From positions 1 to 32,643 of the IMG/VR virus record IMGVR_UViG_2740892229_000018: 32,643 nt of DNA; one strand, given 5' to 3'. Each line of letters begins with the position of its first letter. The stretch's first letter is position 1. The notes below the pieces were generated by a model, which made no database searches, had not been told where the DNA came from, and saw nothing but the letters and a program-made list of their open reading frames with translations. The translations under genes were made by a program, and so were the position numbers. Of this stretch, positions 1-31,898 are shown piece after piece. Source of the stretch: a virus (taxonomy: Duplodnaviria; Heunggongvirae; Uroviricota; Caudoviricetes).

Positions 1-933
1 ATGGACAACGACAAAATTGATCAACACAGCGACGAAATTGAAGTTGAGAGCGAAGAAAAAGAGCGCGGCAAAAAAATAGAAATAGATGAAGACCGACTCC
101 CCTCCCGGGCGATGGCAATTCATGAGCATATCCGCCAGGATGGTGAAAAAGAGCTGGAACGCGACGCAATGGCGCTACTGTGGTCAGCCATTGCGGCGGG
201 TCTGTCGATGGGCGCTTCGTTACTGGCAAAAGGGATATTTCATGTCGAACTGGAAGGTGTGCCGGGCAGCTTCTTGCTGGAGAATCTCGGTTATACCTTT
301 GGTTTTATTATCGTCATTATGGCCCGCCAGCAATTATTTACCGAAAATACCGTGACTGCGGTACTACCCGTCATGCAAAAACCGACAATGAGCAACGTCG
401 GCTTACTTATACGGTTATGGGGCGTCGTGCTGCTGGGTAATATTCTCGGGACAGGTATTGCGGCGTGGGCATTTGAATATATGCCTATCTTCAATGAAGA
501 AACTCGCGATGCATTTGTCAAAATCGGCATGGATGTGATGAAGAACACCCCCAGCGAGATGTTTGCCAACGCGATCATTTCCGGCTGGCTGATCGCCACT
601 ATGGTTTGGATGTTTCCTGCAGCGGGTGCGGCAAAGATTGTGGTGATTATATTGATGACCTGGCTTATTGCCCTGGGTGACACCACCCATATCGTGGTCG
701 GTTCTGTTGAAATCCTCTATCTGGTGTTTAACGGTACGCTGCACTGGAGCGATTTCATCTGGCCCTTCGCACTACCTACTTTAGCGGGGAACATCTGCGG
801 CGGCACCTTTATCTTCGCGTTAATGAGTCATGCACAGATTCGTAACGACATGAGCAATAAGCGTAAAGCAGAAGCACGCCAAAAAGCAGAACGTGCGGAA
901 AACATTAAGAAAAATTATAAAAACCCGGCATAA
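1..933 (+). CDS. yfdC: YfdC, formate/nitrite transporter (FNT) family inner membrane protein
   Basis: 310-aa ORF starting at window position 1; multi-pass hydrophobic protein matching my memory of E. coli YfdC, which sits immediately upstream of argW in K-12. Confidence 0.88.
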   Translation: MDNDKIDQHSDEIEVESEEKERGKKIEIDEDRLPSRAMAIHEHIRQDGEKELERDAMALLWSAIAAGLSMGASLLAKGIFHVELEGVPGSFLLENLGYTFGFIIVIMARQQLFTENTVTAVLPVMQKPTMSNVGLLIRLWGVVLLGNILGTGIAAWAFEYMPIFNEETRDAFVKIGMDVMKNTPSEMFANAIISGWLIATMVWMFPAAGAAKIVVIILMTWLIALGDTTHIVVGSVEILYLVFNGTLHWSDFIWPFALPTLAGNICGGTFIFALMSHAQIRNDMSNKRKAEARQKAERAENIKKNYKNPA

Positions 934-1008
934 ATGGCGAGGGTTTAAGCAATCGAGCGGCAGCGTACTTACCCCGCACTCCATTAGCGGGTATACTCAT
1001 GCCGCATT

Positions 1009-1083
1009 GTCCTCTTAGTTAAATGGATATAACGAGCCCCTCCTAAGGGCTAATTGCAGGTTCGATTCCTGCAGGGGACACCA
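1009..1083 (+). tRNA. argW: tRNA-Arg (anticodon CCU)
   Basis: 75-nt sequence GTCCTCTTAGTT...GCAGGGGACACCA read directly; anticodon loop CUCCUAA, T-arm GGTTCGATTCC, 3' CCA encoded. Confidence 0.92.
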
Positions 1084-1178
1084 TTTATCAGTTCGCTCCC
1101 ATCCGTACCAGTCCGCAAAATCCCCTGAATATCAAACCTTCTGTAGATGCACAGTTCGTAATGGTTCGCGTCAGATCG

Positions 1179-1208
1179 TTGACAGCCGCACTCCATGACG
1201 GGTAAAAA
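1179..1208 (+). promoter_or_regulatory. candidate sigma70 promoter for the integrase gene
   Basis: TTGACA at 1179-1184, 17-18 bp spacer, GTAAAA/TAAAAA at 1202-1208, about 40 bp upstream of the int ATG. Confidence 0.3.
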
Positions 1209-1244
1209 GTGGATAAAATAATTTTACCCACCGGATTTTTACCC

Positions 1245-2426
1245 ATGCTCACCGTTAAGCAGATTGAAGCAGCAAAGCCGAAAGAAAAACCATACCGCTT
1301 ACTCGATGGTAATGGCCTGTACCTTTATGTCCCTGTATCCGGAAAAAAGGTCTGGCAGCTTCGCTACAAGATTGACGGTAAGGAGAAAATCCTGACCGTC
1401 GGAAAATATCCGCTTATGACTTTGCAGGAGGCAAGGGATAAAGCATGGACTGCGAGGAAAGACATCTCGGTTGGCATCGATCCGGTAAAGGCGAAAAAGG
1501 CTTCGTCTAACAACAATTCCTTTAGCGCCATTTACAAGGAATGGTACGAGCACAAGAAGCAAGTCTGGTCAGTAGGCTATGCAAATGAACTTGCAAAAAT
1601 GTTTGATGACGACATTTTACCCATCATCGGCGGCCTTGAAATTCAGGATATTGAGCCGATGCAACTGTTGGAAGTAATCCGCAGATTTGAAGATCGCGGC
1701 GCAATGGAGCGAGCCAACAAAGCACGCAGAAGATGCGGCGAGGTTTTCCGTTACGCTATTGTCACTGGTAGGGCTAAATATAACCCGGCACCTGACCTTG
1801 CTGACGCCATGAAGGGATACCGCAAGAAGAACTTCCCGTTTCTTCCTGCAGACCAGATCCCGGCATTTAACAAAGCACTGGCAACATTTTCAGGAAGTAT
1901 CGTATCGCTCATTGCCACCAAGGTTTTACGCTATACAGCCCTAAGAACGAAAGAGCTTCGTTCCATGCTATGGAAGAACGTCGATTTTGAAAACAGGATT
2001 ATCACCATCGACGCCAGTGTGATGAAAGGACGCAAAATTCATGTGGTTCCTATGTCAGACCAGGTGATTGAACTTCTCACTACGCTAAGCTCAATCACTA
2101 AACCGGTATCAGAGTTTGTTTTTGCCGGGCGCAACGATAAGAAGAAGCCAATCTGCGAGAACGCGGTGCTACTTGTGATCAAACAAATCGGCTATGAGGG
2201 GCTGGAAAGCGGTCACGGATTCAGGCATGAATTCAGCACGATTATGAACGAGCACGAATGGCCTGCCGACGCCATTGAAGTGCAACTGGCACATGCCAAC
2301 GGCGGTTCTGTGCGTGGAATTTACAACCATGCTCAGTATCTCGATAAGCGCAGAGAAATGATGCAGTGGTGGGCGGACTGGATTGATGAAAAGGTGGAGC
2401 AACCAACATTGCTATATCTCAGATAG
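1245..2426 (+). CDS. intS: tyrosine integrase, P4/IntS type
   Basis: ORF beginning MLTVKQIEAAKPKEKPYRLLDGNGLY at ATG 1245 (the track ORF starts at an upstream GTG, 1209); matches my memory of K-12 IntS (CPS-53/KplE1); positioned directly after argW and transcribed away from it. Confidence 0.9.
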   Translation: MLTVKQIEAAKPKEKPYRLLDGNGLYLYVPVSGKKVWQLRYKIDGKEKILTVGKYPLMTLQEARDKAWTARKDISVGIDPVKAKKASSNNNSFSAIYKEWYEHKKQVWSVGYANELAKMFDDDILPIIGGLEIQDIEPMQLLEVIRRFEDRGAMERANKARRRCGEVFRYAIVTGRAKYNPAPDLADAMKGYRKKNFPFLPADQIPAFNKALATFSGSIVSLIATKVLRYTALRTKELRSMLWKNVDFENRIITIDASVMKGRKIHVVPMSDQVIELLTTLSSITKPVSEFVFAGRNDKKKPICENAVLLVIKQIGYEGLESGHGFRHEFSTIMNEHEWPADAIEVQLAHANGGSVRGIYNHAQYLDKRREMMQWWADWIDEKVEQPTLLYLR

Positions 2427-2472
2427 CACAAAGCCTTGCAATCCAGTGCAAAGCTTTGTGTGTCTCAGTTTT
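2427..2472 (+). terminator. hairpin immediately after the int stop codon (possible terminator)
   Basis: 13/14-bp stem cacaaagccttgca / tgcaaagctttgtg (2427-2460) with 6-nt loop; TTTT at 2469-2472 is 8 nt further on, so the U-tract is not ideal. Confidence 0.4.
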
Positions 2473-2577
2473 GTCTTATCAACCCTATTGATGCAATAAG
2501 ACAAAAAAAGGCATTAATGACACAAGTGAATAATTAGAAAATGTGGCCGCAACACTTAAGATGCGGCCTTCAATGCA

Positions 2578-4677
2578 TTAAAGAGGTGTTATGGTAAATG
2601 TTACATTTGTCTGGCTTGCACCAAGTGTTACTTCCAAATTCCCACCACTAACGCTGATAGAGGTTATCGAAATTCCAGAGCCACCATAGACAACCTGATT
2701 AGCGGTGTTTACAGAAAGCGTAGAACCATCATAGCTGAACGTAACCCCGTCAGCATAAGATTGATAGTTATTGACGCGTATTTTAAAAATCTCCCTATAA
2801 ACTGACGCGGCTCCTAAAAAACTAGGGAATGCGCCATTGATTTCTGTCAGTGGGATTTGGAAAGTTTTCCCAGGTCCAGAAAATCCCTTTTTGTGTTGGG
2901 ATACTCTGAATGTCTCATAGGAACCAGTTGACAGTAACTGCCCTCTATATGCTGATTCTTTATGAAATGCTTGTACTGACTCCGCATAATTTACGACACC
3001 TCTACCAACCCTTCCTGTGTCAATTTCTAATGTTGAACCAGTATCCACTAAAGATGCCGGGAAGTTAAATGTGGCACCATTCCAGAAGGTTATTCTGGGA
3101 ACGGTGATGTGGGTATTTACACCTGTAATTGTAAATAAGCGTTGGCGTTGTGTGCGTAGAGACAGGTTCAAAACAGCCGACGCTCCTCCGCTAGCCAGTA
3201 TCACTGCATTTGTAGTATCTATAGTGTCGTAGCAGTTGAAGGTCAGCGCTGCCGAACCAGCTACCATATTTATGTACGCGTTCGCTGACGGTGACGGACT
3301 CTCCGCACCAATATCACCAGCAACGTCACACTCTGAAAAATAATAAGATGAACCACCAGAAACACTACCTGCGTTATCGCATGCCGTTGATTGAAAGTTT
3401 ATGTACTGGCATCTTTCCATATGCCATCCATCTAACTCAGCGCCGGCCACATAGCAGCTGCTTATATGTAGACTTGTTGCTGCTTGGTTAACTGCTGCTG
3501 CTGGCGTCCCGCCTGTAGAGGTAAAGCGTGCTGCGTCATAAAAGACACCGTGAGATGTATTCTCAGAGAATCGGCATAAGGTAAGCCCACCTAACCAACC
3601 GCTTTTAACCCACAGACCATGTTTACAACCTCTGGTTCTCACTTTCTCAATGGAGTAGCCAACAACCTGCGGCATATAAATACCAACAGGTCGGTTGTCA
3701 GATGGCGCTAAATGACAGTCAATATATCCACCACTGAATGTCCAGTATCGGCAGATATCATTTCCGCCGATAAGGAAGACGCAGTTAACATCGCCTTCTA
3801 CGTAAGCTCCTTGCGTGGGAATGTATGCATCAAGTCCAGTAGTGGTAGTTGATGTTTTAACAATTGTAGATTCGCCGAGATTTACCGACCAATAGTCAGT
3901 AGCCTGCAATAAAACAGGTTGGTCTATAAGATAGCCACGACCTTTTTCGTCAGGTGTTTTAATCTTACCAAGAGAATCGAACATGTTCTGGAATGCAGCG
4001 GATGAGGAGGTTGCTCCAGACGGTAAAGAGCCATCATCCTGAACTTCAAAGGACACTGCGCCGAAGTCATCTACAGTTACATTTTCTTTATTTACCCGCT
4101 CCCAGTACCACATGGATGACACCACAGCGATTATGCCGCCATCATCGGATGGAATATTAGACATTCCAACTGTAGAGCGGGCAATAAATTCTCCACCACC
4201 TGTACGACCTCCCGAGTAGTAAGATGCCAGAAGAATTCTCTGACCTCCTACTTCTGGAACAATGGTTCGTAGTTCATCAAAAGAATCTACCTGACCGATT
4301 AACTTAAATCCATCAACGCCAGAAAGACGCTTCTCAAATTGGTCAGGGTCGTACTTCAACACATTAGGGAAATAGAACTGCTGCGCCCCATATGCATCGT
4401 ACACAGCCATAGAATGGCCTTGCCCGGTAACGAATTTGGCAATCTGTCCGTTATATACCGGATAACCAGCAGCGTTAATGATGATTGGTTGAGAAACAGG
4501 AACGTGAGAACCGTCTTCGTTCTCTACATAAACCTGAATCCGGTTTTCAGGATTTACCGGATCCGTGTCAATTTTACCGATATAAATTTCGCCATTGGCA
4601 ACTGCTTTAAAAGAACGCGCCATAGTGAAGAGTTGCGAAGGCATCGATACGATCACATTGGCTGTAATGTCTGTCAT
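2578..4677 (-). CDS. tailspike protein with P22 gp9-like N-terminal head-binding domain and a divergent receptor-binding domain
   Basis: 699 aa; N-terminus [29 protein letters not shown]...[10 protein letters not shown] matches the conserved P22 tailspike head-binding domain from memory; the remaining ~580 aa do not resemble the P22 sequence I recall; GGAG RBS 6 nt upstream. Confidence 0.85.
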
Positions 4678-4735
4678 TTAATTTGCTCCAGATACAAGGA
4701 ATCGCCGCAGCGTAGCTACGGTGAATTTTGGGCAT

Positions 4736-4758
4736 AAAAAAACCCAGCCGAAGCTGGG
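4736..4758 (-). terminator. rho-independent terminator between ant and the tailspike gene
   Basis: Minus-strand hairpin cccagc-ttcg-gctggg followed by TTTTTTT (A-run 4736-4742 on plus). Confidence 0.6.
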
Positions 4759-4777
4759 TCGTTGCGTTGGTTATCTG

Positions 4778-5707
4778 TCAGTAGTTATGTACTGAAGGAG
4801 GCAATTCTTTATTCTTAAGTCTCATCCATGCGGAAAGATTCGTTGGTCCGTCTGGCTCATTAATATCAACATCTCGTGTGTGGTTTATTAAAACGTCTCT
4901 CGCCATTCCGATAACATACGAGAACTCATGACCATAGTCGTAGCATCTGCCGGAATAGTTCGATTGAATTTGTTTTAATGCCGGATACAGTTCGCGGAAT
5001 AATGCCTGTGAGCGGTTGGCATAATCCCATAACCATACAAGGCTGTTTGCTTCTTTTGCAGAAAGCTCGTTGGTTTTCTTCTCTTGTTTGCCGATTAACT
5101 CGCCTTCAAGCGGAACGCGAGCTGCAAGTGACAGAGCTTCGGTAAACTGCTCCTCGCTGATTTCTTTGTATGAACACCCAAAATGGGATTTCAGTGATGA
5201 CCACATGGTGATCATCGCCTTAGCCTGTTTTTCTTTTGGCAGAGACTGACCGCGACTCATGACGAGTTGTTTAATGGCTTCCTGCTGTTCAGTGGTGATT
5301 TTACCCGGCAACGCCTTTTTAGCTTTGCGTGGGTTAACTACATGGCCTTTAGTCCAGTACTCGTATAGCACATCGTCACACTCTTCTTGATACTGGATTA
5401 CATTGTCGCGGATTTCAGGGCGGACTTTGTTAGGGCTGATGGTTTGCAGCCAGCCAGCAAGTTTGCGAAGTGCCAAACAAATAATCTCACGGCACTGTTC
5501 ATCACCAGGAAGCTGCATTGTGATTTTCACAATGGAGGTTTTAAACCGTTGCTTTATTTTCGTAAACTGTGAAGCCCAATCCATACCCATGCCTTCAACG
5601 ATAGGTTTCATTGGGGTGTACGGCTCACCGTTGTGATTGACGACATAAAGCTCTGCGCCGTGGAATGGCACGTTGATAGTAGATACCGCTGTTGCTATAC
5701 TTTTCAT
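4778..5707 (-). CDS. ant: antirepressor Ant (immI region)
   Basis: Sits directly downstream of arc on the same strand, as in P22 immI. ATG at 5707 ([12 protein letters not shown]...) preferred over the track's upstream TTG at 5773. Confidence 0.7.
5672..5700 (+). promoter_or_regulatory. Psar-like promoter antisense to the ant start
   Basis: TTGATA (5672-5677), exact 17-bp spacer, TATACT (5695-5700) on the plus strand; predicted start lies at about the ant start codon. Confidence 0.45.
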
Positions 5708-5775
5708 GTCAATATTTCCTAATCCGATTTGTTGATACCGAAGCCCTGACTGTTCCAGCAGTTGGGGCTTCAACT
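5706..5775 (+). ncRNA. sar: candidate sar-like antisense RNA covering the ant RBS and the arc-ant spacer
   Basis: Transcript from the Psar-like promoter would run about 70 nt to a 7-bp hairpin gaagccc(5740-5746)/gggcttc(5765-5771); matches the size and position of P22 sar RNA; the U-tract is weak. Confidence 0.4.
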
Positions 5776-5937
5776 TTACGCGCCAATGCGCCCTTCCTTC
5801 TTAAAGCTTTCCATTACTCTCTGATAAATCTCAGAGTTAACAGACCGACCATTCTCTTCCGCCACCTTGCGTACCAAATCCAATACTTCTTTAGGCCACC
5901 GCAAATTGAACTGCGGCATCTTGCTCATTCCTTTCAT
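5776..5937 (-). CDS. arc: Arc repressor (ribbon-helix-helix)
   Basis: 53-aa product [53 protein letters not shown], essentially the P22 Arc sequence as I remember it. Confidence 0.93.
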
Positions 5938-5952
5938 ATTCACCTCACAATA

Positions 5953-5971
5953 TAGGTTCACCGTGGACCTA
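5953..5971. promoter_or_regulatory. Mnt operator (O_mnt)
   Basis: Near-perfect dyad TAGGTTCACCGTGGACCTA, placed just downstream of the Pant -10 as in P22. Confidence 0.6.
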
Positions 5972-6000
5972 TTGAGAATATAGTAGAGTGCTTCTATCAT
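5972..6000 (+). promoter_or_regulatory. Pmnt-like promoter
   Basis: TTGAGA (5972-5977), 17-bp spacer, TATCAT (5995-6000), divergent from and overlapping Pant. Confidence 0.45.
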
Positions 6001-6001
6001 G
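5976..6001. promoter_or_regulatory. Arc operator
   Basis: gaatatagtagagtgcttctatcatg is the reverse complement of the P22 arc operator CATGATAGAAGCACTCTACTATATTC as I recall it; lies between the Pant -35 and -10. Confidence 0.7.
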
Positions 6002-6005
6002 TCAA
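5977..6005 (-). promoter_or_regulatory. Pant promoter
   Basis: Minus-strand TTGACA (6000-6005), 17-bp spacer containing the Arc operator, TATATT (5977-5982). Confidence 0.6.
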
Positions 6006-6027
6006 CACACTAACTTGGAGTGATGGC

Positions 6028-6279
6028 ATGGCTAGAGATGATCCGCACTTTAACTTCCGTATGCCTATGGAAGTAAGGGAGAAATTAAAATTCAGGGCGG
6101 AGGCGAATGGGAGATCAATGAACTCCGAGTTGTTACAAATCGTCCAAGATGCTCTATCAAAACCATCGCCTGTGACTGGATATCGTGACGATGCAGAACG
6201 ACTCGCTGATGAGCAGTCAGATCTTGTTAAGAAGATGGTGTTTGATACGCTGAAGGATTTGTACAAAAAAACCACCTGA
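6028..6279 (+). CDS. mnt: Mnt repressor
   Basis: 83-aa product MARDDPHFNFRMPMEVREKLKFRAEANGRSMNSELLQIVQDAL... near-identical to P22 Mnt from memory. Confidence 0.93.
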   Translation: MARDDPHFNFRMPMEVREKLKFRAEANGRSMNSELLQIVQDALSKPSPVTGYRDDAERLADEQSDLVKKMVFDTLKDLYKKTT

Positions 6280-6378
6280 CGGTGAGTTAATTTTTGCATT
6301 TACCTGGGCCATATTGACTACTTATAAAATGAGATCAATATTTAATCGCCCAATAACGGGTGTATGTTGAGGTATATC

Positions 6379-6558
6379 ATGGCGAAAAAACCAGGTGAAA
6401 ACACAGGGAAAAACGGCGGAATATACCAAGAAGTTGGCCCACGCGGCGGTAAGAAAGACAATTTTGCCACCGTCAAGGACAACGAAAGGCTTCCACCAAC
6501 AACAAAGCCAGGTCATGGCTGGGTATTGGATAAGCGAACTCCAGACAGCAAAAAGTAA
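6379..6558 (+). CDS. small conserved protein, possibly YjzC-like; function unknown
   Basis: 59 aa from ATG 6379 (GAGG 8 nt upstream; the track's earlier ATG at 6364 lacks an RBS). Motif KPGE..NGGIYQEVGPRGG...ERLPPTT..GHGWVL resembles the YjzC-like small-protein family as I recall it. Confidence 0.45.
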   Translation: MAKKPGENTGKNGGIYQEVGPRGGKKDNFATVKDNERLPPTTKPGHGWVLDKRTPDSKK

Positions 6559-6563
6559 TAATC

Positions 6564-6588
6564 AAGCCGGGTCACTCCGGCTTTTTGA
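6564..6588. terminator. hairpin with T-run between the convergent cargo genes
   Basis: agccgg(6565-6570)/ccggct(6577-6582) followed by TTTTT on the plus strand; overlaps the last codons of the minus-strand 121-aa gene. Confidence 0.45.
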
Positions 6589-6937
6589 TATGTCGCTCGC
6601 AGAACTCAACAAGCCTGCTCATTAAGTAGCAGTAAGTCTCGTTGGCTCTTCCTGGTTCAACATCAACACCTACCCTTGAGCAGATATCGAATGCCATGTG
6701 AGCGCACTCATGGGCAATAGTAGATAGTTTGCCATTGAACACGCCTATCACATGCAAAACACCATTCTCGCTACTCATTGTATGAGACGCTCCGTTGGCG
6801 TCCGAGTCATGCACGTCAACGCCAAGTTTTTGATGCAGGCGTTGCCATTCTGGAAAGTCTCTACAAAACACAATTGTACCGCTCTCAAAGAGCGGTACGA
6901 GCATCTTTGGTACGTTTCCAATGTTAACTTTTTTCAT
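6572..6937 (-). CDS. hypothetical 121-aa protein with HExxH motif (putative minimal zincin-like metallopeptidase)
   Basis: MKKVNIGN... contains H76-E77-C-A-H80 with E94/E100 downstream; divergently transcribed from the lipoprotein gene; sits where P22 carries sieA. Function inferred from the motif only. Confidence 0.5.
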   Translation of the reverse strand: MKKVNIGNVPKMLVPLFESGTIVFCRDFPEWQRLHQKLGVDVHDSDANGASHTMSSENGVLHVIGVFNGKLSTIAHECAHMAFDICSRVGVDVEPGRANETYCYLMSRLVEFCERHIKKPE

Positions 6938-6971
6938 GGTATCCTGCGCAAAACTAAGGAGAGTTAATTAT

Positions 6972-7457
6972 ATGAAAAAATCACTGTTAATTATCCCGCT
7001 TCTGCTGGCTGGGTGCGCAAAAGTAAGCGACTATCAGGCAAGTTGCGAGCAACGCTATCCAAAGCTTAGCGATATGGCTAATTGCCTTGATGCCAGCTTG
7101 AAGAACGACTCTCGCATGGCATCAGCACCAACACCTAAGCTGTATGTCCTTGCTGCGAAGATGCTCGGGCAAGGTGTCGATGAAGGCAAGATAAGTGACA
7201 CACAGGCAAGACTTGAACTTCAGAATCTTTATGTTCAATTACAAAGCCAAGAACAAGCACAACAAATAGCACAAAGCCAAGCATTCCAGCAGGCTTTATT
7301 GAATTATCAGGCTGTAAACACAATGCAAGCGATCGAGCAAAAAGCGCGCCAGCCTGTTATAACTCAACCTTACCCAACACGCGTTGACACATATACAAAC
7401 TGCAATTCAGGATTTGGAAACACGGTAACATGCAACAGTAGCAGTAATATCAGGTAG
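6972..7457 (+). CDS. putative lipoprotein with Gln-rich coiled-coil segment
   Basis: MKKSLLIIPLLLAGC has a signal peptide and lipobox (LAGC); AAGGAG RBS 8 nt upstream of ATG 6972; central segment QNLYVQLQSQEQAQQIAQSQAFQQALLNYQ. Confidence 0.65.
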   Translation: MKKSLLIIPLLLAGCAKVSDYQASCEQRYPKLSDMANCLDASLKNDSRMASAPTPKLYVLAAKMLGQGVDEGKISDTQARLELQNLYVQLQSQEQAQQIAQSQAFQQALLNYQAVNTMQAIEQKARQPVITQPYPTRVDTYTNCNSGFGNTVTCNSSSNIR

Positions 7458-7471
7458 TTATATCTTATCTT

Positions 7472-9352
7472 TTATTGCTGTTCTGCTGTAATTTGGCTTG
7501 AAAGTATAGGGCGTATCGCATTTGCAGCATTATTTAGCGCTCTTTCATAGGCTGGTGTTCCTGCTTTGGTGTTTGCCAGACGTAAGAGAGCATTCCTTGC
7601 TGCTTTGGACTCATACAAGCGCATCATTGCACCGAAACCAGCCTCAAGCCCCATTGATACGCCAAGAGTCGCAGTTGCGCCAATCGTCCTTATCCTGTTG
7701 GCTTGCGATTGCCCCGTCTGAGTTACTACATTTGCGGTGTCTGACCTTGCTGTTTGCTGTAGAACTTCATGAAGAGCATCAAGCTCTTTCATGTGCTTTC
7801 CTGAAAAAATAGTGTTGTAAATTTCACCGCCTGACTGAGATTTCAGCTTATTAACTTCAGTGATGAACTTGGCTGGAGAGTCACCGGCCTTTTCCGCTAT
7901 TTTGCTGACGTAAGCTGCACGCATAGCATCTTTCCCTTTATCATCCAGTGCGCTCCAGATTCGTTTCACGTCAGATGGTTTTCTGCTTAATACAACAGTA
8001 TTTATAAGTTCAGGACTGGCTTCACTGCTTGCCTTGTTGAGCTTGTTAGCAATGTTTTTATTAAGCACCTTATTATAAACGTTTGCATAATCGGAATTTG
8101 CTTTAAGGTATTTTGCTGCGTCTGACGCACCGAGGTTTTTTGCAACTGCGTTACGAAGGTCTTTTGACATTGCATTCTCTACCATATTGGTAGCTGCTTT
8201 TGCCTGGTTGGGGAAGACCATAGCATCTCCCTGAACATTAGATCTAAATGCTGTTCTGTGCTGACGCAAGAGATCAAACGTAACATCCAAATCAGTTGCA
8301 GGGTTTGCTAATTCTTCACGTAGGTTACGCAAGGATGTAAGCAGGCTTTGATTGGCTGAAGTCCCAAGCCGTTCCTGTCTTGCGATCGCTGTATTCAGAG
8401 CATTCATGGTATTTGTGGTATCAACTGCGGCATTACCCATTTTATTGGTGACGTCATTGATAACAGCGCCAGCGGCATCCTTCCGCCCCCTTAACGTGGT
8501 GGTAAGAGATTTCACCACATCATCAGGGTTGTACTCACCAAAACGGTCAAAATAATTACTTACCAGCTTACTACGCGTTGCATATTGCTCCGCTCGCTTT
8601 GAGCCTGTCCCGAGCAAAGCCCCCTCGGCATCCTGAGTTAGGCCGCGAGTGAAAGCATTTTTCGGCGGGATAACATCAGATGTCATTGGTGTCACGCCCA
8701 TCGATTCTGATGTGGCAATTTTCTTCGCCACTTCTGGCGCAATATCACCTTTTATAGCCGTTATTCCACGCCCTATTCCCTTTGCTGCTGCGGAAAGAAC
8801 ACCCTGAGTGGCAAGGTTAACTCCGGCATTTTTAGCTGCATTTTGTGCGAAATCGCCTTTCTGATTTGCGGCCTCTGCCAGTGATCCAATAGCCATGCTT
8901 CCTGCCGTTCCAACTCCTGGAACTAAATACCCACCAATTGTTTCACCGGCTTGCGCGTAGGGGTCTGTCGGTCGATCGACAGGGCGATAAACATCATCCA
9001 AAACCTTGGGGCCACCAAGCCCCTGACTGATTGCATTAATCAGACTTGCGCCACCCTGCAATACGTCAAATGGTATGTTTACCAGACCACGACCAGCCTG
9101 TTCTGCAATTTGCCCTGCACTTTGACCACCAGTGAGCCAATCGCCAGCTTGTTGCATCAATGATGGTTCTTCTTTCTGCTGCTGAGGTGGAGGGTATGCT
9201 GCATAAAACTGATCTCTTGCTTCAGCCCATTTGTCACCAGCCTTAGGGGCAACAACCTCATCAAAATATTGCGCTTGAGCCTGTGCTTTCTGTTCTTCAG
9301 TTAACGCCTGATACTGTGGAGAAGCGATAACATCTTTCCATGCTTTAGCCAT
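7472..9352 (-). CDS. DNA-ejection (injection) protein, P22 gp16-like
   Basis: 626 aa, last of three consecutive ejection-protein genes between tail needle and immI, as in P22; size close to P22 gp16. Confidence 0.7.
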
Positions 9353-10701
9353 TAATCACCCCATAAAGACGAGAAACCGGACTTATTGCTGTCGCTTCCT
9401 GATTTTCGCTCACTAACATATGTGTCATAACCTGATGAACTATATCCCATTGATTCAGCCTCCCTTGCTGCAACCTTTTGAAATACAGAATATTGCGATC
9501 GGATTTCAGATAACTGTTTTCTGACGACCTCTTCAGGCTGTGTTATATCGAGTTTCGCGATAAGGTTTTCCAGTTTTTGTCCTTCAGCATTGGAGAGGCT
9601 ACCCATACCTCGCATAGTCTGCACGTTCTGGACAAACGCACCCGACTTTAATTCTTCTATCGCATTACGGTTTGCAAGCCCTTCAGCACTTGTGAAGCCA
9701 TCTATATTTCTTCCTTCGAAGCGACCGATACCTTCAAGCTCCTTCTTACCAAGCAAAGAATCTATTTTCTCTATCCCTCGCTCACCAGTAATCAACGCAT
9801 TGTTGTAATTATTGTTGCCATCAAGCCATCTCTTAGCCTGAGACATTCTGGCTGACGTTGCAGCTTTACCGGTTAGCGGATCAATTCCCGTCGCTGCTAT
9901 CTGTGAGTTAAGAGACAAAACATCCATATCCTGAAGTTGTCCTGCTCTTTCAAGGGCCGCCTGTGACTGCTTAAACACATACTTGTCGTGATTCAGTCTT
10001 GCCATTTGAGCCTTATAGGAAAGATCCTGCCCCCTAATAGCCCTCGCATTCGTCATGTCATTATTGCGAATGGTTTCGTTAATTCTTTGCTGCTCCTGCT
10101 GGCGACCAACCATCTTGTCCTGAACAGCAAACGCCTTTTCTGGTCCAAGCGCACCGAGAGACATAGTAGTCAGCATGTGTGATAGCTGCTCTGGATTCTG
10201 GATACCTGTCTGAATCATCCAGTCAGCATTAGCACCAACGCGATTTAACCTGTCCTTGTTATCAGTAATGAATTTACTGTAGGCTTCCGGTCCCTGAGAA
10301 AGAGCGACGTTAGCCCTCATGGCTAAATCGCCCATATCGTTGCGTTGCTGCTCATTAAGACCGGAAAACGCCTGTTGTGCCTGTGCAACAAACGCTGGAT
10401 TTTCCTGGGCAAACTTAAATAGTCCCGATGGATCACCAGAAGCCCATGCATCAGCGTGAACCTTATTGAACGCACTAATAGCTTTCTGTTGCTGTTCCTG
10501 ATTGTAAATATCAGCAACTCCAGCCAGACCACGTAACGCGGTCAGACCAACGTTATTTGCACCTGAGCGAGCCAGTTCATTGTTTTCGCGGATCAGACCA
10601 AGCGTTGCGTTAATGTCGCTTGCCTTTGGCGCATTCTCATTTTGCGTACCGATGCCAGCCAGAAAACCACCAGAATTAATACCCTGTTGCCACGTAGCCA
10701 T
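9352..10701 (-). CDS. DNA-ejection protein, P22 gp20-like
   Basis: 449 aa; assigned by position and size in the P22 ejection-protein block. Confidence 0.65.
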
Positions 10702-10711
10702 TGATTACCCC

Positions 10712-11404
10712 TTAAAACAACGAGCCAAGCAGACCAAGACCGCCGCCGATCGCAGCCCCCCACGGAGTTGATGAACCAATTAATTTCGCAAGTCCGGCCC
10801 CAGCAATAGCACCAGACGCACCTCCGCCAATAGCAGATTGCATTGCTGATGGTCTGTTGGCATTTGCCGCTGCAAGAGCCGCACTTTGCTGCGAAATCTG
10901 ACTCATGTTGTTGGCATATGTCTGCCCTGCGTTTGCCTGACCTTGCAGAGCACCAAGCCCAACGTTTGCCAGATTCTGGTAGTTGTTCATCTGACCAGAC
11001 AGCCACTGCTGACCAAGCGTTGGTGCGATTGTTGCTAACTGATTACTGGTTGCGGTGGAACCCAATCCACCTGTTGCTTCCGCTGCAGCCAGACTCTGAT
11101 AGCGAGCCTGACCTGCAAGGTCTTTATACTGCTGAGAGTTGTAATACTGGTTAAGTGCCTGACCTTGCCCCTCCAGAGACGATAAGTTTTCGAGGCTGCC
11201 GACATACTTATCAGCCAGAGGAGTAAACGGCTTCAGGTTATTCATGATGGTGTTGAACTGCTGATTTTGCAGGTCTGCGGCATACTTCTGGGCTTCTGCT
11301 GCATACTTTGCGCTTTTATCAGAACTGCCACCTTTCCCACCCTTTTCAGGGCAATAAGGTTCCTCGCCGCGCAGTTTTCTGCCCAGCTTAAATGCATATA
11401 ACAT
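10712..11404 (-). CDS. DNA-ejection protein, P22 gp7-like
   Basis: 230 aa, Gly/Ala/Gln-rich with hydrophobic C-terminus; position and size fit P22 gp7. Confidence 0.65.
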   Translation of the reverse strand: MLYAFKLGRKLRGEEPYCPEKGGKGGSSDKSAKYAAEAQKYAADLQNQQFNTIMNNLKPFTPLADKYVGSLENLSSLEGQGQALNQYYNSQQYKDLAGQARYQSLAAAEATGGLGSTATSNQLATIAPTLGQQWLSGQMNNYQNLANVGLGALQGQANAGQTYANNMSQISQQSAALAAANANRPSAMQSAIGGGASGAIAGAGLAKLIGSSTPWGAAIGGGLGLLGSLF

Positions 11405-11406
11405 GG

Positions 11407-11862
11407 CTATCTCCCGTGATTCAGGAAGTCGATTAGTTCTTCGCGTGTGGCGCTGTAAAAAGTCACGTCATCAACGCCTTTGAAGTATTTCTTGATGGTT
11501 CCTACACGCTTAAGGCCAATCATTGCGCAGTACATCTGACCGTGGCGGAATTTGCGTGCAGCGAACGATGTTACGCACTGAACGGTGGTGTTAGTCAGAA
11601 TGTATCTCCAGAACGCCAGCCCGATTTCCTTGCTGAAGCCGCGAATCTCTGGCAGGTACATGGCGTGGCAATCGAATGTCAGCGGCTGAATCTCCTGATA
11701 GTAAACAATGCCGCCAAACTGACCGTGCACGTTAACCTCAAAGTAACGGCATTCAGGCTTGTAGTCGTATCCATCACCGTTGTTGCTTCCGGCAATAATG
11801 TCAGGGTGATTTCCGACTGCTTCGATCAGGTCGATGTTTCGCGTTGGTTTGAACTGAATCAT
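11407..11862 (-). CDS. P22 gp14-like virion protein (by synteny)
   Basis: 151-aa ORF between the tail-needle and gp7-like genes; assignment by position only. Confidence 0.45.
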   Translation of the reverse strand: MIQFKPTRNIDLIEAVGNHPDIIAGSNNGDGYDYKPECRYFEVNVHGQFGGIVYYQEIQPLTFDCHAMYLPEIRGFSKEIGLAFWRYILTNTTVQCVTSFAARKFRHGQMYCAMIGLKRVGTIKKYFKGVDDVTFYSATREELIDFLNHGR

Positions 11863-12710
11863 TACTGCTCCGCGATTATCTTGATGGTTGTGGCAGTAAA
11901 CGCCGCACCATTTGACTGAATGGTTAACGTACTGCCATTTGTGGCAAGAAAGCCGTCTTTATCCACGCTGAAGAACGTAGCTAACAGGATGTTATCGGTT
12001 GTTGTCGCCGCATTACGACTGCTGACCAACGTGTCAGGAACAGAGCCGGAAAAGGTTAGCTGCATTGATCTGTTGGCGGTTCCGCTGGGCCACGTCCCGA
12101 CAATAGACAGCTTGAAGAACAAAGTTTTGTTCTCGTTGAACACAACCATCTTGTTGTTAACGGTGTCGAAGAATGGTGCCAACGAGCCTGATGACGGCGT
12201 GAGCGTTTTCAGCAGGCTAACAAGGTTGGTCGGCGCTGTCGGAATGGTTACTGATACGCCAGAGTAAACAACCTCTGACTTCTTGCGAGTAGTGGCATAC
12301 TCCAGAGCATCAATGCGCGACTCATGGTCTGAAACCTGCGATTCCAGCGACTGAACTCTGGTATCAAGCGACGCAATATCGCTTTCATTCTGAGCTATTC
12401 GTGTTTCATGTTCCTGAAGAGTTGATTCTGCCTGGCTGATTCGCTCCTCATGATTAACAAGCGTTGCTTCCGCAGCAGAAATTCGCTGCTCATGGTCAGC
12501 GAGAATCACATCCTGCTCATCGTTCCTGACTTGTGCGTCATAAGCGCCCTGTCCGGCCTCGTTGGCCTTGTTAGCCACATTACCAACATCAGTACCCTGT
12601 GCGATAACGTAAAGCAGATACGACTGCGAGAAGATATTGCGTGGAAGGACTGATGTGTCTAGCCGCGTAGCTTGGATGATTACCGGCACATTGAGATTCG
12701 AATCCGCCAT
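11862..12710 (-). CDS. tail needle (P22 gp26-like) with C-terminal knob domain
   Basis: 282 aa; heptad coiled-coil repeats ([36 protein letters not shown]) then a ~140-aa C-terminal domain, as in Sf6/HK620-type needles. Confidence 0.8.
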
Positions 12711-14128
12711 TACTCAATCCTTATCTGGCAGCCAGACAGAGTGACTGGTGACTTCGTAATAACGCGCAATTTGAAGCCGACATTTTTCCTGATGCGCCCT
12801 ACTCGCTTCCACAAAACACGCTTGTCGTAAACGAACGGTTCATTCTGCTCAATCATCTGCTCACGCCCGTAATTGATGCCGTCAGTGGTTGCAGAGAGAA
12901 AAAGGCGGTCGGCGTACTGCGCAACGCCAGTTGACGATTCAACCTCAAGGTCGAAAACTCTGGCGTTATCTGCTTTGAAGAGTGGGGTAAACAGCAGATG
13001 TTCCTGTTGCTTGTCGTACTGGCTGCTGATATCGAACTGCAATTTCCCGGTAACAGATTCCAGCTTATCGCCGCACGTTATCTGATTGCCTTCGTAAATG
13101 AAGTCGATAGCGCGGTACACATCGTCATACAGGCCTGTTTTCAGCACACACCATTGCGGACCATTGGCGCTTGAAGATGCGTCGTACACGAGAACATGGC
13201 GCGGAAGATGGATAATCAGCAACTCATGCGCATCAAACCGCAACGATTCCATCACGCCATCAGCCAGTTCATCAGCAGTGTAGGAGCGAAGAATTTTCTC
13301 AATGCTCGCGCTGGCGATTGGTGACACCTGACCGGAGCCGATGATATACACAGACGGCGCACCTGTTGCCGGATTGCTGATGAAAGCATAGGAATCAGCA
13401 AACGGCGTTTTGCAGTAAGTTCCGGCGATGCCTTTTTGCACCATCAGCGATGGCTGCGCGACATACAAAGCAGCACCAACGGTAGTTGCGCCTGTCAGGG
13501 AGAAATATTCAATCGTCGATGAACCAAAGCAGACGATGAAGTCTCGCCATGTTCCGATGCCGATAATACCGTCAGGCTGAGACTCGGCACGATATTGTGC
13601 ACTGTATCGGTCAGGGTGCGATTCGTCTTCAAGGTCAGTGATAAACCATGAATCAGTTCCGTCTTTTGACCACGCATAACGCCCACGTAAGCGCGTAATG
13701 TCGCGAACTGAACCTAACTCGTACTGTGTGAATCCGCTGTCTGTAGGCCAGTTTGAGACGGTTTTAACCGTGCCATCATAGCGATACTCGACCAGTTGAC
13801 CATTAACGCCTACAGCCTGAGATGTCCGACCATGCGCCATTGATACACGACCACTTCCGGCAACATCACCGACTTCGCTTTCGCCCTTATACAGCTTGCC
13901 CCCACACACGCGATATACAGCACTCTGCGCCATGTTGTACTCGACGCCGCGCGATATACCGTTCACATCAGAACGTTTGGCAATGCCCGGGAATGAGCGA
14001 AGATATCCGCTGCTGTTGAGGATTTCTTTGGGTGTAGCCAACATATTCACTGGCAGATAGTCGATATAGTCGGCGTTTCGGAAGTCTTTGCCGACACCTT
14101 TCATAAGCGGAAGTTGCTGAATCGGCAT
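12710..14128 (-). CDS. tail hub / head-completion protein, P22 gp10-like
   Basis: 472 aa, same length as P22 gp10 as I recall, located between the gp4-like and needle genes. Confidence 0.7.
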
Positions 14129-14136
14129 TTATTCAC

Positions 14137-14619
14137 CTATGCGTTTGGTATATCGCCATCAATCAGAGGGAGATCGCCTGGATAATATCGGTCAGATGTA
14201 AACACGTCATATTTATTACCCTGTCCTACAGGAAAATCTCCACGTCGTCGCATTGAAGGAACAATCAGAGTGTCGGTCATCAAGGCATCATATGAGCGTT
14301 GGGCGTTACTGAGAACTTGCGGAGTTGGTTCAAGGCTGTAATCAGATAGCATTCTCAGCAATAACTGATAGCCTACTGCGTGTTTGTATTTTCTTGGAAG
14401 ACCTGACTCATCATCTGGTAATGGCTGCTCATCTCCAGTTGCGAAAGCGTAACCAATGTCGCCGGGGTTAATCATCCACTCGGACATCATATCTTCCAGA
14501 TCATTTACACCATCTTCAATTGATTGCGGCTCAACATCAGTCAGCGATGCATTAGAAGCAATAGCAAACTTACGAAGCGCAAAAAGGACGATCTCACCCT
14601 TTGTCAGTACTGTTGCCAT
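14137..14619 (-). CDS. tail accessory factor, P22 gp4-like
   Basis: 160-aa ORF downstream of the coat gene; position and size fit gp4. Confidence 0.65.
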   Translation of the reverse strand: MATVLTKGEIVLFALRKFAIASNASLTDVEPQSIEDGVNDLEDMMSEWMINPGDIGYAFATGDEQPLPDDESGLPRKYKHAVGYQLLLRMLSDYSLEPTPQVLSNAQRSYDALMTDTLIVPSMRRRGDFPVGQGNKYDVFTSDRYYPGDLPLIDGDIPNA

Positions 14620-14779
14620 TGTCTGCCGCCTTACGACCTCGCTTACTGGTCGGTTTCAATTCATCAACTGAGGCAACAAAGCCCAACTTTTCGAAGAACT
14701 GGAAGTCTTTTTCTGCGATAACGGCCTGTACATGCCCGGATTCGTTATCTGCGGCAAGGAATACACTCATGCGATCCAT
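14594..14779 (-). CDS. hypothetical small protein between coat and gp4-like genes
   Basis: 61-aa ORF whose stop overlaps the gp4-like start; no recognised motif. Confidence 0.35.
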   Translation of the reverse strand: MDRMSVFLAADNESGHVQAVIAEKDFQFFEKLGFVASVDELKPTSKRGRKAADNGNSTDKG

Positions 14780-14780
14780 A

Positions 14781-14807
14781 TTGTTTCCTTAAAACATAAA
14801 AGGGGCG
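14781..14807 (-). terminator. rho-independent terminator/attenuator after the coat gene
   Basis: Minus-strand hairpin ggggc-ttac-gcccc followed by TTTTATGTTTT, directly after the coat stop (14822). Confidence 0.55.
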
Positions 14808-14821
14808 TAAGCCCCTTGTTA

Positions 14822-16099
14822 TTACGGATTACCGAAGAACTGACCGCCCATGTGAGGGTTAAAGCACACATATGCAGGCAGTAAGTCAAAGCGCATTTTT
14901 TGCACGTTGGCATCGCCATCTGCGTATTTATGTACGCGGATGGAGAAACCTTCATATGTTGCAACAGCAGAATCAATACTGTGCAGTTTCGGCAGTGGGA
15001 TAGAGCCAAGTCCACAGAAGAACTTGTTATAGAACAGGTTTGGCTTCATTGTCTGGCTAGCAGTGCCTACTACAGATACGGCATCACCTGCCGCTACCTG
15101 ACGACTTACAGAGTTGTACTGCGGGTTTGTAGTGTCATAAATCGGAACACCAGAAAGCGTAACCGTCACATCGCCACTGCTGTCTGAATTAGCATCAGCA
15201 GTAACCGTTGCAGTGAAGCTAATTGGTGTGGCTCCGTTATACAACGCCTGTTTGGTCTGCTGTTGCAGCCAGTAGGTATTGGTGAATTTGACCTGATCAC
15301 CAGCTTTCAGAAAACCTGTAACGCTGGCTGTCGCTCCGGTCAATGTTACAGTGAACTGGTATGAGTCTTTAACTGCGTTATAGGTAACAGTTGGCTGTGT
15401 TTTGACTGTCAGTGTTCCGCCAAATGCCCCCTGCGTACGAGAGGCAAGCCCATTAGACATCAGTGCGCGAATGCCGCCAAAATTGGTTGGGATCTGTGCG
15501 TTCTCCCATGCAGTACGAACCAATTGATCTGAAGCATGCAAACCAGTCTGCGCATCAGCAAGTCGCTGTGCAGACCATGGATCCATTACAGCATAGTTTT
15601 CACCTTCATTAACGCCGAGGTCTTTCAGGAAAGATGCCGTCTGCGCAACATCAGACCATTTGGTGATTGGCGTATTGGGGCTACCAAGTGACAACGCACC
15701 GTTATTCATCATGAAGTGAGCAAGCTCTGTTTCAAGGTCGGTAACGATTCGCTGGCGAACCGGCGCGAGAATTTCTTCCAGCTGGTTAAGCTTGATCGCT
15801 TCCTCCAGTTGCTGATATTCAACAGCAACAGTGATGTAGTTACCTACACGCCCCGTAGCTTTACCTGAGATCAGGTTGTTTTTATTTTGCCCTGAAATAT
15901 CACCAGTGGGAGTACGGAGTGATGAGAATTGATGCGGACGTTTAAAGCTAACGCTATCGCCAGTGCTGGAGTTGATTTCACCTGCCAGCAACTGACGGTC
16001 TACGGTTTTCGCCAGAACTAAATCTGACATAAAACCCGGAAGGAATTTTTTCAGAACGATTTGACTGACGTTACTGTCGAGATTGTTATTGTTAGGCAT
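14822..16099 (-). CDS. major capsid (coat) protein, Sf6-type
   Basis: 425 aa between scaffold and gp4-like genes; sequence unlike the P22 coat I recall, size consistent with the Sf6 coat group. Confidence 0.85.
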   Translation of the reverse strand: MPNNNNLDSNVSQIVLKKFLPGFMSDLVLAKTVDRQLLAGEINSSTGDSVSFKRPHQFSSLRTPTGDISGQNKNNLISGKATGRVGNYITVAVEYQQLEEAIKLNQLEEILAPVRQRIVTDLETELAHFMMNNGALSLGSPNTPITKWSDVAQTASFLKDLGVNEGENYAVMDPWSAQRLADAQTGLHASDQLVRTAWENAQIPTNFGGIRALMSNGLASRTQGAFGGTLTVKTQPTVTYNAVKDSYQFTVTLTGATASVTGFLKAGDQVKFTNTYWLQQQTKQALYNGATPISFTATVTADANSDSSGDVTVTLSGVPIYDTTNPQYNSVSRQVAAGDAVSVVGTASQTMKPNLFYNKFFCGLGSIPLPKLHSIDSAVATYEGFSIRVHKYADGDANVQKMRFDLLPAYVCFNPHMGGQFFGNP

Positions 16100-16110
16100 C
16101 TATCTTTTCC

Positions 16111-16995
16111 TTATTCGATTTTTGCGCCGGGGCATAATTTGTTGAATTCGTCTTGTTTCGCATCAGCACCGCCACCACGTACTTCCGGCTCTGGCTTGAT
16201 GGCTTTCTTTGGTTTTGGAGCAAGGCTTACCTGTTTGCTAATCTGCCCCAAGAGGAATGCTGCGCGAATTGGATCTGTCTCAGCGGCTACACGCTGGCGT
16301 AATTGCTGGCTCTTACCTAAGCCATAGGCGAGTAGTTCAGAGCCTTCGTCTGCACAGTGAATGATGATTTCCTGCTGAATTGGTGGTAGCTCACTAAGAA
16401 CAATGGCTTCCATTTCCTGATAATCTTTCACAGGAAGTTTGGCTGCCCGTTGTTTATGCGCTTCTACCCTTTGCTGGAAACGCTGTTGGTATTCCTGTTG
16501 CTGACGTAGTTTTTGTTGCTGCTGCTGTTCGACACGGCCTTTTTTCTCATGCCAATCAGTCAATGCCTGTTCAAACGCCTGTTCGTCATAATCACACGAC
16601 TCAAGAGTCGGTTTTGGTGGAATAGCGTCTGGTTGTGGTTGCTGATGTTCCGCTGGCTTGGCTAATGCTTCCTCAAGCTGGCGGCGCAACTCACGGTTTT
16701 CTTTCTGTGTTTCTTTGAAGCCTTTGCGAAGATCTTTCACCCATTGCGGTGCAGGTTGCCCGTCAATGTGATCATCATCGTCAGCGTTAAGCTGAATTTC
16801 TTCATCACCAATACGCAAGGCGTAATCTTCTGGTGTCTCTTCGGTTTTTTCAGGCTCAGTTTCCACCTCTTTACCGTTGTCATCCTGGCTTTCATTCTCA
16901 GGCTGTGACTCTGTTTGGATGATGGTTTCTTCTGCATTTTCCTGTGTTTCAGACAGGTCAATAACCTGACCGTCGATGATCAGTTCGTTTTCCAT
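16111..16995 (-). CDS. scaffolding protein
   Basis: 294 aa, highly acidic and Gln/Glu-rich with a helical C-terminus, between portal and coat. Confidence 0.7.
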   Translation of the reverse strand: MENELIIDGQVIDLSETQENAEETIIQTESQPENESQDDNGKEVETEPEKTEETPEDYALRIGDEEIQLNADDDDHIDGQPAPQWVKDLRKGFKETQKENRELRRQLEEALAKPAEHQQPQPDAIPPKPTLESCDYDEQAFEQALTDWHEKKGRVEQQQQQKLRQQQEYQQRFQQRVEAHKQRAAKLPVKDYQEMEAIVLSELPPIQQEIIIHCADEGSELLAYGLGKSQQLRQRVAAETDPIRAAFLLGQISKQVSLAPKPKKAIKPEPEVRGGGADAKQDEFNKLCPGAKIE

Positions 16996-17008
16996 TGATT
17001 ACTCCTGG

Positions 17009-19135: not shown

Positions 19136-19137
19136 GT

Positions 19138-20550
19138 TTACCAACCGGAGGATGAGGGAACGTATATTTCTGTTTGTTCGCGGGCCAATGCCGGGCAATG
19201 CATACACATCATCAACGCATCAGCCAGGTTAGGAGATGGAATACCGAGCTTCTGCTTCATTTCGACCTTAGTCATTAGCTCAAGCTTCCCGTTGTTATTG
19301 AATTTGCGCTGAATCTGCGTCAGTTCTGCAAACAGCTTCTCCAGCATCTTCTCGCCTATCACTTCTTTGTCGAAACTCAGCATGTCGTCGGGGTCTGCAT
19401 ACTCACCGTGGACAACCGCCCGATATGTCAGATACAGCCTGTCAGCCAGCGCGTAATAGAATTGCGCTCGCTTATTGCGGAATACATCGCCAATAGTGCG
19501 AACGTTGTCACCCTGTACGACTTCATCAGCCCATGCTCCGGCCTGATACGGCGCATCTTCATCGAATGGCGATTCGCTACCCTTGAACATCGTGGCGGTG
19601 ATTTTCTTGCCGGAGAACGCTTCCGTTGTCTGTCTGCGTAGCCCGGCACCAACACCATCACCATCCCACAGGTAGTGGTCAGCGCCGTCTTCAATCGCCA
19701 GCGAAGTAGCCCAGTCAGCACCATCGTTGATGTCCATCAGCAGACCTTCGGCAATGCGCTTAACTACCGAACCGTGGCGCGATGCGTAACCTTTAGCATC
19801 TGGCCCTGTATCTGACGGGTCATGCGCAGAGACAACAGCGCCTTTCGCTTTCCATCCGAGTTTCTTGTGCGCATCGGTTGCGGCTTCAAGCCATTCACGT
19901 TTGATGATTGCCATATCACTTGCGCTTACTGGCTCACCAAGCCAGATGTGACGATACAATGTCGGATTTCTGCGTTTGCACTCTTCCATCTCCAGACGGA
20001 GAACTTCAGGAAAGTGCGGGTTGTCGGTGTAGTTCACCGTCAGCAGGCAAATATCATCGGGAGGATTTACAACGAATCGCTGATAGGTATCGTCGAGGAT
20101 GTTTTTCGGGTTGAAGCTCACCCATATTTCGGAAAATGGCTTGCGGATGGTTGGTATCAGGATATCCCATGATTCCTTCGTTACCGCTTCCGCTTCCTCC
20201 ACCCAGCAGATATCAATGCCTTCGAGCGATTTAATCTTCGTCGGGTTGTTTTTGATGCCGTAGAACATGAACTCAGCATTCGTTCCGAGATGACGAATCA
20301 TTGAACGCTGAATTTCAAACTCAGCCGAATACCCTTCCCGCTCTATGGTGTCTTCAAGCAACCGGATTACCGAATCGCTGATACTGTTTTGCAGCTCACG
20401 AGCGCAAAGTATGCGCACAGGCTGCCGACGCGCCGCTTCAACAAGCAGCCTCGCAATTGCCCATGACTTACCGCTACCTCGACCGCCTTTGGCAACTTTG
20501 TAGCGATGCGCCTCAATGAACGGTTCAAAGATAGGATTAATCGAGGTCAT
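19138..20550 (-). CDS. terminase large subunit
   Basis: 470 aa with Walker A VAKGGRGSGKSWA near the N-terminus; start overlaps the TerS stop (ATGA). Confidence 0.9.
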   Translation of the reverse strand: MTSINPIFEPFIEAHRYKVAKGGRGSGKSWAIARLLVEAARRQPVRILCARELQNSISDSVIRLLEDTIEREGYSAEFEIQRSMIRHLGTNAEFMFYGIKNNPTKIKSLEGIDICWVEEAEAVTKESWDILIPTIRKPFSEIWVSFNPKNILDDTYQRFVVNPPDDICLLTVNYTDNPHFPEVLRLEMEECKRRNPTLYRHIWLGEPVSASDMAIIKREWLEAATDAHKKLGWKAKGAVVSAHDPSDTGPDAKGYASRHGSVVKRIAEGLLMDINDGADWATSLAIEDGADHYLWDGDGVGAGLRRQTTEAFSGKKITATMFKGSESPFDEDAPYQAGAWADEVVQGDNVRTIGDVFRNKRAQFYYALADRLYLTYRAVVHGEYADPDDMLSFDKEVIGEKMLEKLFAELTQIQRKFNNNGKLELMTKVEMKQKLGIPSPNLADALMMCMHCPALAREQTEIYVPSSSGW

Positions 20551-20987: not shown

Positions 20988-20989
20988 GT

Positions 20990-31537: not shown

Positions 31538-31547
31538 ATGTAAGTAT
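31515..31547 (+). promoter_or_regulatory. pRE-like promoter with CII-binding site
   Basis: TTGC-N6-TTGC (31515-31528) with AAGTAT-like -10 about 31541-31546, antisense to the cII start and directed toward cI. Confidence 0.6.
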
Positions 31548-31613
31548 TTCCTTAGATAACAATTGATTGAATGTATGCAAATAAATGCATACACCATAGG
31601 TGTGGTTTAATTT

Positions 31614-31649: not shown

Positions 31650-31656
31650 GAATGTC

Positions 31657-31872: not shown

Positions 31873-31898
31873 ATGCCCTCCATAGTAACCATGAAACA

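Follow-up and report, generated by a model that had tools for sequence, protein, structure and literature searches.

We report here that a stretch of DNA from a tailed virus (IMG/VR record IMGVR_UViG_2740892229_000018, positions 1 to 32,643; the whole of these 32,643 nucleotides is called the window below) most probably carries, at positions 4741-6583, an intact P22-type immunity-I (immI, or "ant moron") module in a P22-like (Lederbergvirus) prophage of E. coli; we put the probability of this at about 0.9. Aligned with the annotated P22 record BK000583, whose own immI lies at 14.2-16.0 kb, the region holds the complete set of mnt, arc, ant, operators and sar, in the gene order and orientation of P22 and between the ejection-protein genes and the tailspike gene. 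Sequence identity, family membership, gene integrity and conservation of RNA structure all point the same way: the four immI open reading frames (ORFs) are full length and free of frameshifts, a terminator scan found terminators on both flanks of the module, and nucleotide identity to P22 is 96.6% from the 3' hairpin of sar through arc, the control region and mnt to beyond orf59a. A switch of this kind had been proposed from the letters of the window (the sequence-only reading), and every element lies where it was then placed or at most 1-2 nt away. The features of the module are as follows.

4741-4760, minus strand: Rho-independent terminator after ant (stem-loop and T-run) from the terminator scan, in a P22-homologous block with the P22 ant terminator (1528-1551 of the P22 locus, L001)
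4778-5707, minus strand: ant, antirepressor, 309 aa; Pfam P22_AR_N (150.7 bits) and P22_AR_C (103.8 bits), PHROG 245 "anti-repressor Ant"
5673-5678 and 5696-5701, plus strand: Psar, -35 TTGATA and -10 TATACT with a 17-nt spacer, inside the first ant codons and convergent with Pant
5708-5777, plus strand: predicted sar antisense RNA, ~70 nt, its ends set by homology to the P22 misc_RNA
5708-5736, plus strand: 5' hairpin of sar, with the anti-Shine-Dalgarno UCCU at 5717-5720
5740-5771, plus strand: 3' terminator hairpin of sar
5717-5720, minus strand: ant Shine-Dalgarno AGGA, 9 nt upstream of the ATG at 5705-5707, the putative target of sar
5776-5937, minus strand: arc, ribbon-helix-helix repressor, 53 aa, 52 of them identical to P22 Arc (R16K); Pfam Arc, 105.8 bits
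5952-5972: Mnt operator (O_mnt), core 17-mer 5954-5970, predicted by P22 homology at the Pant start
6000-6005 and 5977-5982, minus strand: Pant, -35 TTGACA and -10 TATATT, 11/12 consensus positions; drives arc and ant
5972-5977 and 5995-6000, plus strand: Pmnt, -35 TTGAGA and -10 TATCAT
5980-6000: Arc operator (O_arc), 21 bp, overlapping both Pant and Pmnt
6028-6279, plus strand: mnt, maintenance repressor, 83 aa, 81 of them identical to P22 Mnt; Pfam Arc and Repressor_Mnt
6379-6558, plus strand: orf59a homologue, co-transcribed with mnt in P22; phrog_3202, function unassigned
6564-6583, plus strand: terminator of the mnt transcription unit from the terminator scan, in a homologous block that holds the P22 mnt terminator (L001 3329-3351)

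Control region and repressor genes

The control region at 5938-6027 is identical to P22 immI at 87 of 90 positions, the differences being at 5953, 5958 and 6006. The Arc and Mnt operators had been described as recognisable at the base level, and the alignment bears this out: O_arc matches P22 at 21 of 21 positions and the 17-mer of O_mnt at 16 of 17, where no match of either kind is expected by chance (100 shuffles for O_arc). Pant and Pmnt overlap as claimed, and their hexamers are identical to those of the annotated P22 promoters. A promoter scan of the 2.1-kb stretch returned six promoter-like matches, the top three of which are Pant, Pmnt and Psar, yet 3.4 +/- 2.2 are expected by chance, and we dropped the enrichment as evidence. 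Because the promoter matches do not exceed chance, our argument rests on homology to elements annotated in P22 and not on consensus matching.

On the protein side, mnt is divergent from arc-ant, and residues 1-53 of Mnt, which include the DNA-binding domain, are identical to P22. The ant gene lies downstream of arc in one operon and is followed by its terminator and then by the tailspike gene. Over its whole length Ant shares 57% identity with P22 Ant, and over its last ~110 residues more than 90%; its C-terminal third is P22-like, and its N-terminal and central part represents another allele, similar to that of CUS-3 and H6. Two extended ORFs, a 74-aa "arc" at 5776-6000 and a 331-aa "ant" at 4778-5773, were discarded, and the starts homologous to those of P22, at 5937 and 5707, were kept.

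The sar RNA and the mosaic junction

The plus-strand promoter TTGATA-N17-TATACT named in the sequence-only reading is located as stated and, in addition, bears the TG of an extended -10 (TGcTATACT at 5693-5701, with TG at 5693-5694), matching 10 of 12 consensus positions. The P22 record has its Psar at the homologous position, where the -35 reads GTGTTA and not TTGATA as in the window. The block TTGCTA of the -10 is invariant in 12 of 12 aligned sequences although it lies inside ant codons, and the codons around it otherwise vary among homologues.

The antisense RNA that this promoter would make, put at 5706-5775 in the sequence-only reading and here at 5708-5777 by homology to P22, was said to cross the ant ribosome-binding site and to end at a hairpin, as P22 sar does, and we reach the same view. 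The Rfam model RF00262 (sar) matches 5709-5775 on the plus strand over its full length (model positions 1-68) with 68.3 bits (gathering score 43) and an E value of 2.5e-12. The span set by P22 homology, 5708-5777, starts at the base next to the ant ATG and reaches 2 nt into the arc stop codon (5776-5778), in the same register as in P22, and covers the ant Shine-Dalgarno and the arc-ant spacer with perfect complementarity; a cis-antisense RNA such as sar necessarily complements its own ant leader. The predicted fold has two hairpins at -29.8 kcal/mol (z -7.2), and P22 sar has the same architecture at -29.5 kcal/mol. We compared the locus with those of 12 further phages, 10 of which score above the Rfam threshold and two below it (38.6 bits for L014 and 32.1 bits for L013). 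In an alignment of 12 sequences (the window and 11 phage loci), 88.9% of cells are paired, compared to 33-50% for slid registers, and double-sided changes occur in 7 of 21 pairs, compared to 3.4 +/- 1.1 in shuffles. On the grounds of sequence and predicted fold, the "candidate sar" is a genuine member of RF00262.

In P22, the sar transcript has been characterised by experiment (Liao et al. 1987, as cited in PMC2629481), and it was seen again by RNA-seq during P22 infection (PMC13397905). Repression of ant translation by sar is reported there for P22 only (Liao/Wu 1987, as cited in PMC2629481; PMC13397905). The 2026 small-RNA data for P22 (Table 2 of PMC13397905) list the sar locus as a 104-nt species that begins 5 nt before the annotated start and runs ~30 nt beyond the sar hairpin, antisense to arc; compared to the annotated RNA of 68-70 nt, this suggests read-through or imprecise ends.

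A recombination junction falls within the sar gene (window 5673-5740). To the right of it, from the 3' hairpin onward, the sequence is of P22 type; to the left, the 5' hairpin of sar and the -35 region of Psar belong to a non-P22 allele, and BLAST aligns nothing of the P22 locus to 5112-5691, the segment that codes for the N-terminal and central part of Ant. PhiR12_1 has exactly this 5' hairpin and Kapi1 one that departs from it by 1 nt, and the -35 region of Psar recurs unchanged in E. coli H6 and TL-2011b; the TTGATA hexamer is also present in CUS-3, with 3 differences in 23 aligned upstream positions. The junction leaves the sar structure unbroken, with the 5' hairpin kept through compensatory changes, and brings in a near-consensus Psar -35 and a CUS-3/Kapi1-like 5' end of ant. 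The module is one more case of "ant moron" shuffling among P22-like phages; according to the epsilon34 paper, no part of the late operon is more fluid, and sixteen genomes hold ten types of it (PMC2629481).

Proposed function and alternative readings

The P22 immI roles give the frame for a functional reading: in the lysogen Pant is silenced by Mnt; after infection Arc turns off both Pant and Pmnt; sar base-pairs with the ribosome-binding site of ant; and the primary repressor is bound by Ant (PMC11016777, PMC2629481). The cI/cro that the sequence-only reading assigned to the same prophage is present, as part of an immC region whose counterpart in phage vB_EcoP-683R2 is 98.9% identical and annotated there as cI/cro/cII.

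31244-32643: immC region
31244-31537, minus strand: cII
31657-31872, minus strand: cro; Pfam HTH_3
31990-32643, plus strand: cI; Pfam HTH_3 and Peptidase_S24

By analogy with P22, Mnt made from Pmnt in the lysogen would bind the operator at the Pant start and keep arc-ant silent, which would leave the antirepressor unable to inactivate the resident cI-type repressor. During infection, Pant would fire, and Arc would accumulate and occupy the 21-bp operator over both divergent promoters, turning off ant (and mnt). Once convergent transcription from Pant ends, Psar would make the ~70-nt sar, which would pair with the arc-ant spacer and the ant Shine-Dalgarno and block residual ant translation. 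Expression, operator occupancy and action of Ant on the resident cI are thus expected by homology. The same holds in part for the claim of an antirepressor-based second immunity layer beside cI/cro: both immI and cI/cro/cII are in place, and the layer itself is the classical immI reading (PMC11016777, PMC2629481), presumed to apply here from homology.

Several observations weigh against a module that works just as in P22. The 3' hairpin of sar lacks a canonical U-run after it, and the terminator scan did not list it; that transcription would end there is deduced from P22, whose record annotates the sar terminator at the homologous site. The N-terminal two-thirds of Ant are only ~40% identical to P22 Ant, and because this part has diverged and the cI is not P22 c2, that Ant targets this cI is an assumption. 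Finally, one Mnt half-site departs from the consensus GTGGACC (PMC2726951) at 5958, and Mnt repression could, given this change, be weaker than in P22.

The last point deserves a closer look. At 5958 the window has T, and P22, epsilon34, E. coli O111 11128 and H6 have C; the change lowers the complementarity of the Mnt operator palindrome from 100% to 90% and alters position 4 of the left half-site, which reads GTGAACC, with the right half-site GTGGACC intact. The same operator region occurs in 128 of 5426 complete E. coli genomes, and the T allele in one of them (2013C-4991, the sole carrier); among the 52 IMG/VR contigs that carry the exact O_mnt-O_arc 47-mer, none has it. At 6006, just upstream of the Pant -35 and about at the Pmnt start, the window has C, and H6 and O111 have T. 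Both changes, which lie in the immI control region, are private to this prophage and 2013C-4991. One could argue from them that the switch, though present, is retuned or leaky, in that 5958 C>T, perhaps together with 6006 C, would lower the affinity of Mnt and leave Pant partly derepressed in the lysogen, with Arc and sar, the latter from a stronger, near-consensus Psar -35 in place of the GTGTTA of P22, bearing more of the repression load. We consider this reading unlikely. The intact right half-site and Mnt DNA-binding domain speak against it, the T at 5958 is also found in the apparently stable prophage of 2013C-4991, and two private changes per ~280 nt are statistically unremarkable. Position 3 of the half-site is more than 70-fold specific according to the Mnt-specificity literature, and the motif written as GTGSACC (PMC3176789) suggests that the most specific positions do not include position 4; our literature search gave no affinity figure for G>A at position 4. 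P22virB-3 (OQ031658) and wild-type P22 are identical over 2265 bp across immI, with no operator-constitutive mutation by which to calibrate 5958. That 5958 C>T, 6006 T>C and the Psar -35 imported by recombination jointly make a naturally retuned immI with weaker Mnt repression seems to us rather improbable as well; if it were true, Arc and sar would set another antirepressor threshold, and spontaneous induction or anti-immunity behaviour would differ from that of P22.

The intact module could also be the silent relic of a cryptic prophage, with an unused immI whose conservation reflects recent acquisition instead of function. The fluidity of the "ant moron", of which HK620 and Scho1 have degraded versions (PMC2629481), would fit such a history, as would the patchwork nature of the window relative to its closest genomes. 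The four immI ORFs are nonetheless without frameshifts, promoters, operators and terminators are all intact, and the surrounding genes for virion, lysis, replication and immC appear as full-length ORFs of expected size, which makes this highly improbable. We give next to no credence to the idea that the plus-strand promoter and hairpin arose by chance in ant/arc coding and spacer DNA and yield no RNA: sigma-70-like matches are indeed not enriched in the 2.1-kb stretch and the hairpin is followed by no U-run, but the Rfam score is 25 bits above the gathering threshold, the extended -10 block persists unchanged across 12 diverged sequences amid ant codons that vary, compensatory changes keep both sar helices, and the P22 homologue is a characterised transcript in the accounts cited above (Liao et al. 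1987 via PMC2629481; reads in PMC13397905). We thus retain the reading of an intact P22-type module.

Relatives, distribution and neighbouring genes

The Sf6-like morphogenetic background noted earlier is evident at the nucleotide level: the head module at 14100-21000 (terminase, portal, scaffold, coat and gp4) is 98.4% identical to Sf6 over 94% of its length (~6.5 kb) and 98.5% identical to HK620, and the coat protein matches Pfam P22_CoatProtein with 474.6 bits. Sf6 and HK620 themselves have ant morons without a functional immI, the ant of HK620 being degraded (PMC2629481), unlike the window with its full P22-type set. Compared to P22, the ant and mnt terminators and orf59a are common to both, and the 3' hairpin of sar differs in its loop only; the window differs in its N-terminal and central ant allele, in the 5' hairpin of sar, in the Psar -35 and in the single O_mnt substitution at 5958. 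It further differs from P22 in its host (E. coli), its Sf6-type head, an immC that is not P22 c2/cro, and the replacement of sieA by an unrelated lipoprotein-like ORF.

Among other prophages, that of 2013C-4991 is 100% identical over window 4700-6600, with the immI genes annotated at the same coordinates, but its head genes differ from those of the window. H6 shares the Psar -35 and has nearly the same sar and ant allele; like O111, it differs from the window in having C, the consensus base, at 5958 and T at 6006. The prophages of 2013C-4991, H6 and O111:H- 11128 share an identical Arc protein accession, WP_000677939.1. Of four Escherichia phages of the genus Lederbergvirus (N7, vB_EcoP-611R6, vB_EcoP-683R2 and Kapi1), the first three have the Sf6/HK620-type head module (98.2-98.4%), and N7 and 611R6 also have ant and arc, with sar matches of 94.0 and 87.7 bits, above the Rfam threshold. 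In N7, 611R6, 683R2 and Kapi1, other Arc-family proteins stand at the "mnt" position, with different operator regions, and an additional ORF separates arc from ant in 611R6 and Emek. CUS-3 has a similar ant allele (88.9% over ant) and a sar match of 84.6 bits; it is without an arc gene and has two mnt-like genes (PMC2629481).

It follows from these comparisons that the combination of an Sf6-type head with ant, arc and sar is already known from N7 and 611R6, and that the module is a textbook case of P22 immI, for which P22 and epsilon34 already have annotations and which many E. coli prophages and phages carry; it adds nothing biologically to the P22 paradigm. The exact mosaic of the window is absent among complete E. 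coli assemblies, where the best coverage of 2000-16000 is 67%, with each module present. The main value of the finding lies in annotation. For identical or near-identical immI regions (L002, NZ_CP027355.1, 20079-21859, and also L067 and L068), RefSeq gives Ant and two "Arc family DNA-binding proteins", and its annotation of the immI stretches of 2013C-4991, O111 11128 and H6 contains no sar RNA, promoters or operators; since RefSeq omits sar and the operators, this common class of E. coli prophages has a bipartite-immunity wiring that is easily overlooked.

The prophage is integrated next to an Arg-tRNA gene, downstream of yfdC. Host DNA and the prophage end, including the integrase gene, together make up window 1-2426, and the tailspike gene follows the integrase directly (the prophage end, counted up to that gene, takes in 1-2577); the prophage of 2013C-4991, in contrast, has a family-2 glycosyltransferase between int and tailspike.

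1-933: yfdC, host DNA
1009-1080: tRNA-Arg(CCU) gene, 63.4 bits
2578-4677, minus strand: tailspike gene, 699 aa; P22 head-binding domain at residues 1-113, 214 bits

Past residue 113, the receptor-binding part of the tailspike has no Pfam match. From 4031 onward, at the N-terminal, head-binding end, the gene is 99.3% identical to that of 2013C-4991, and 2400-4030 finds no match in that genome, so that the receptor-binding parts differ.

Two further ORFs are of note. The one at 6572-6937 on the minus strand (121 aa) matches phrog_1365 and is ~96% identical to P22 in its DNA; the P22 record BK000583 annotates no gene at the corresponding position (L001 about 3336-3701). The other, at 6972-7457 on the plus strand (161 aa), begins MKKSLLIIPLLLAGC and occupies the position of P22 sieA. 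It has no Pfam family, matches phrog_6067 (function unassigned), and shows a lipoprotein-like signal with a lipobox; it could serve a prophage-expressed exclusion or conversion function.

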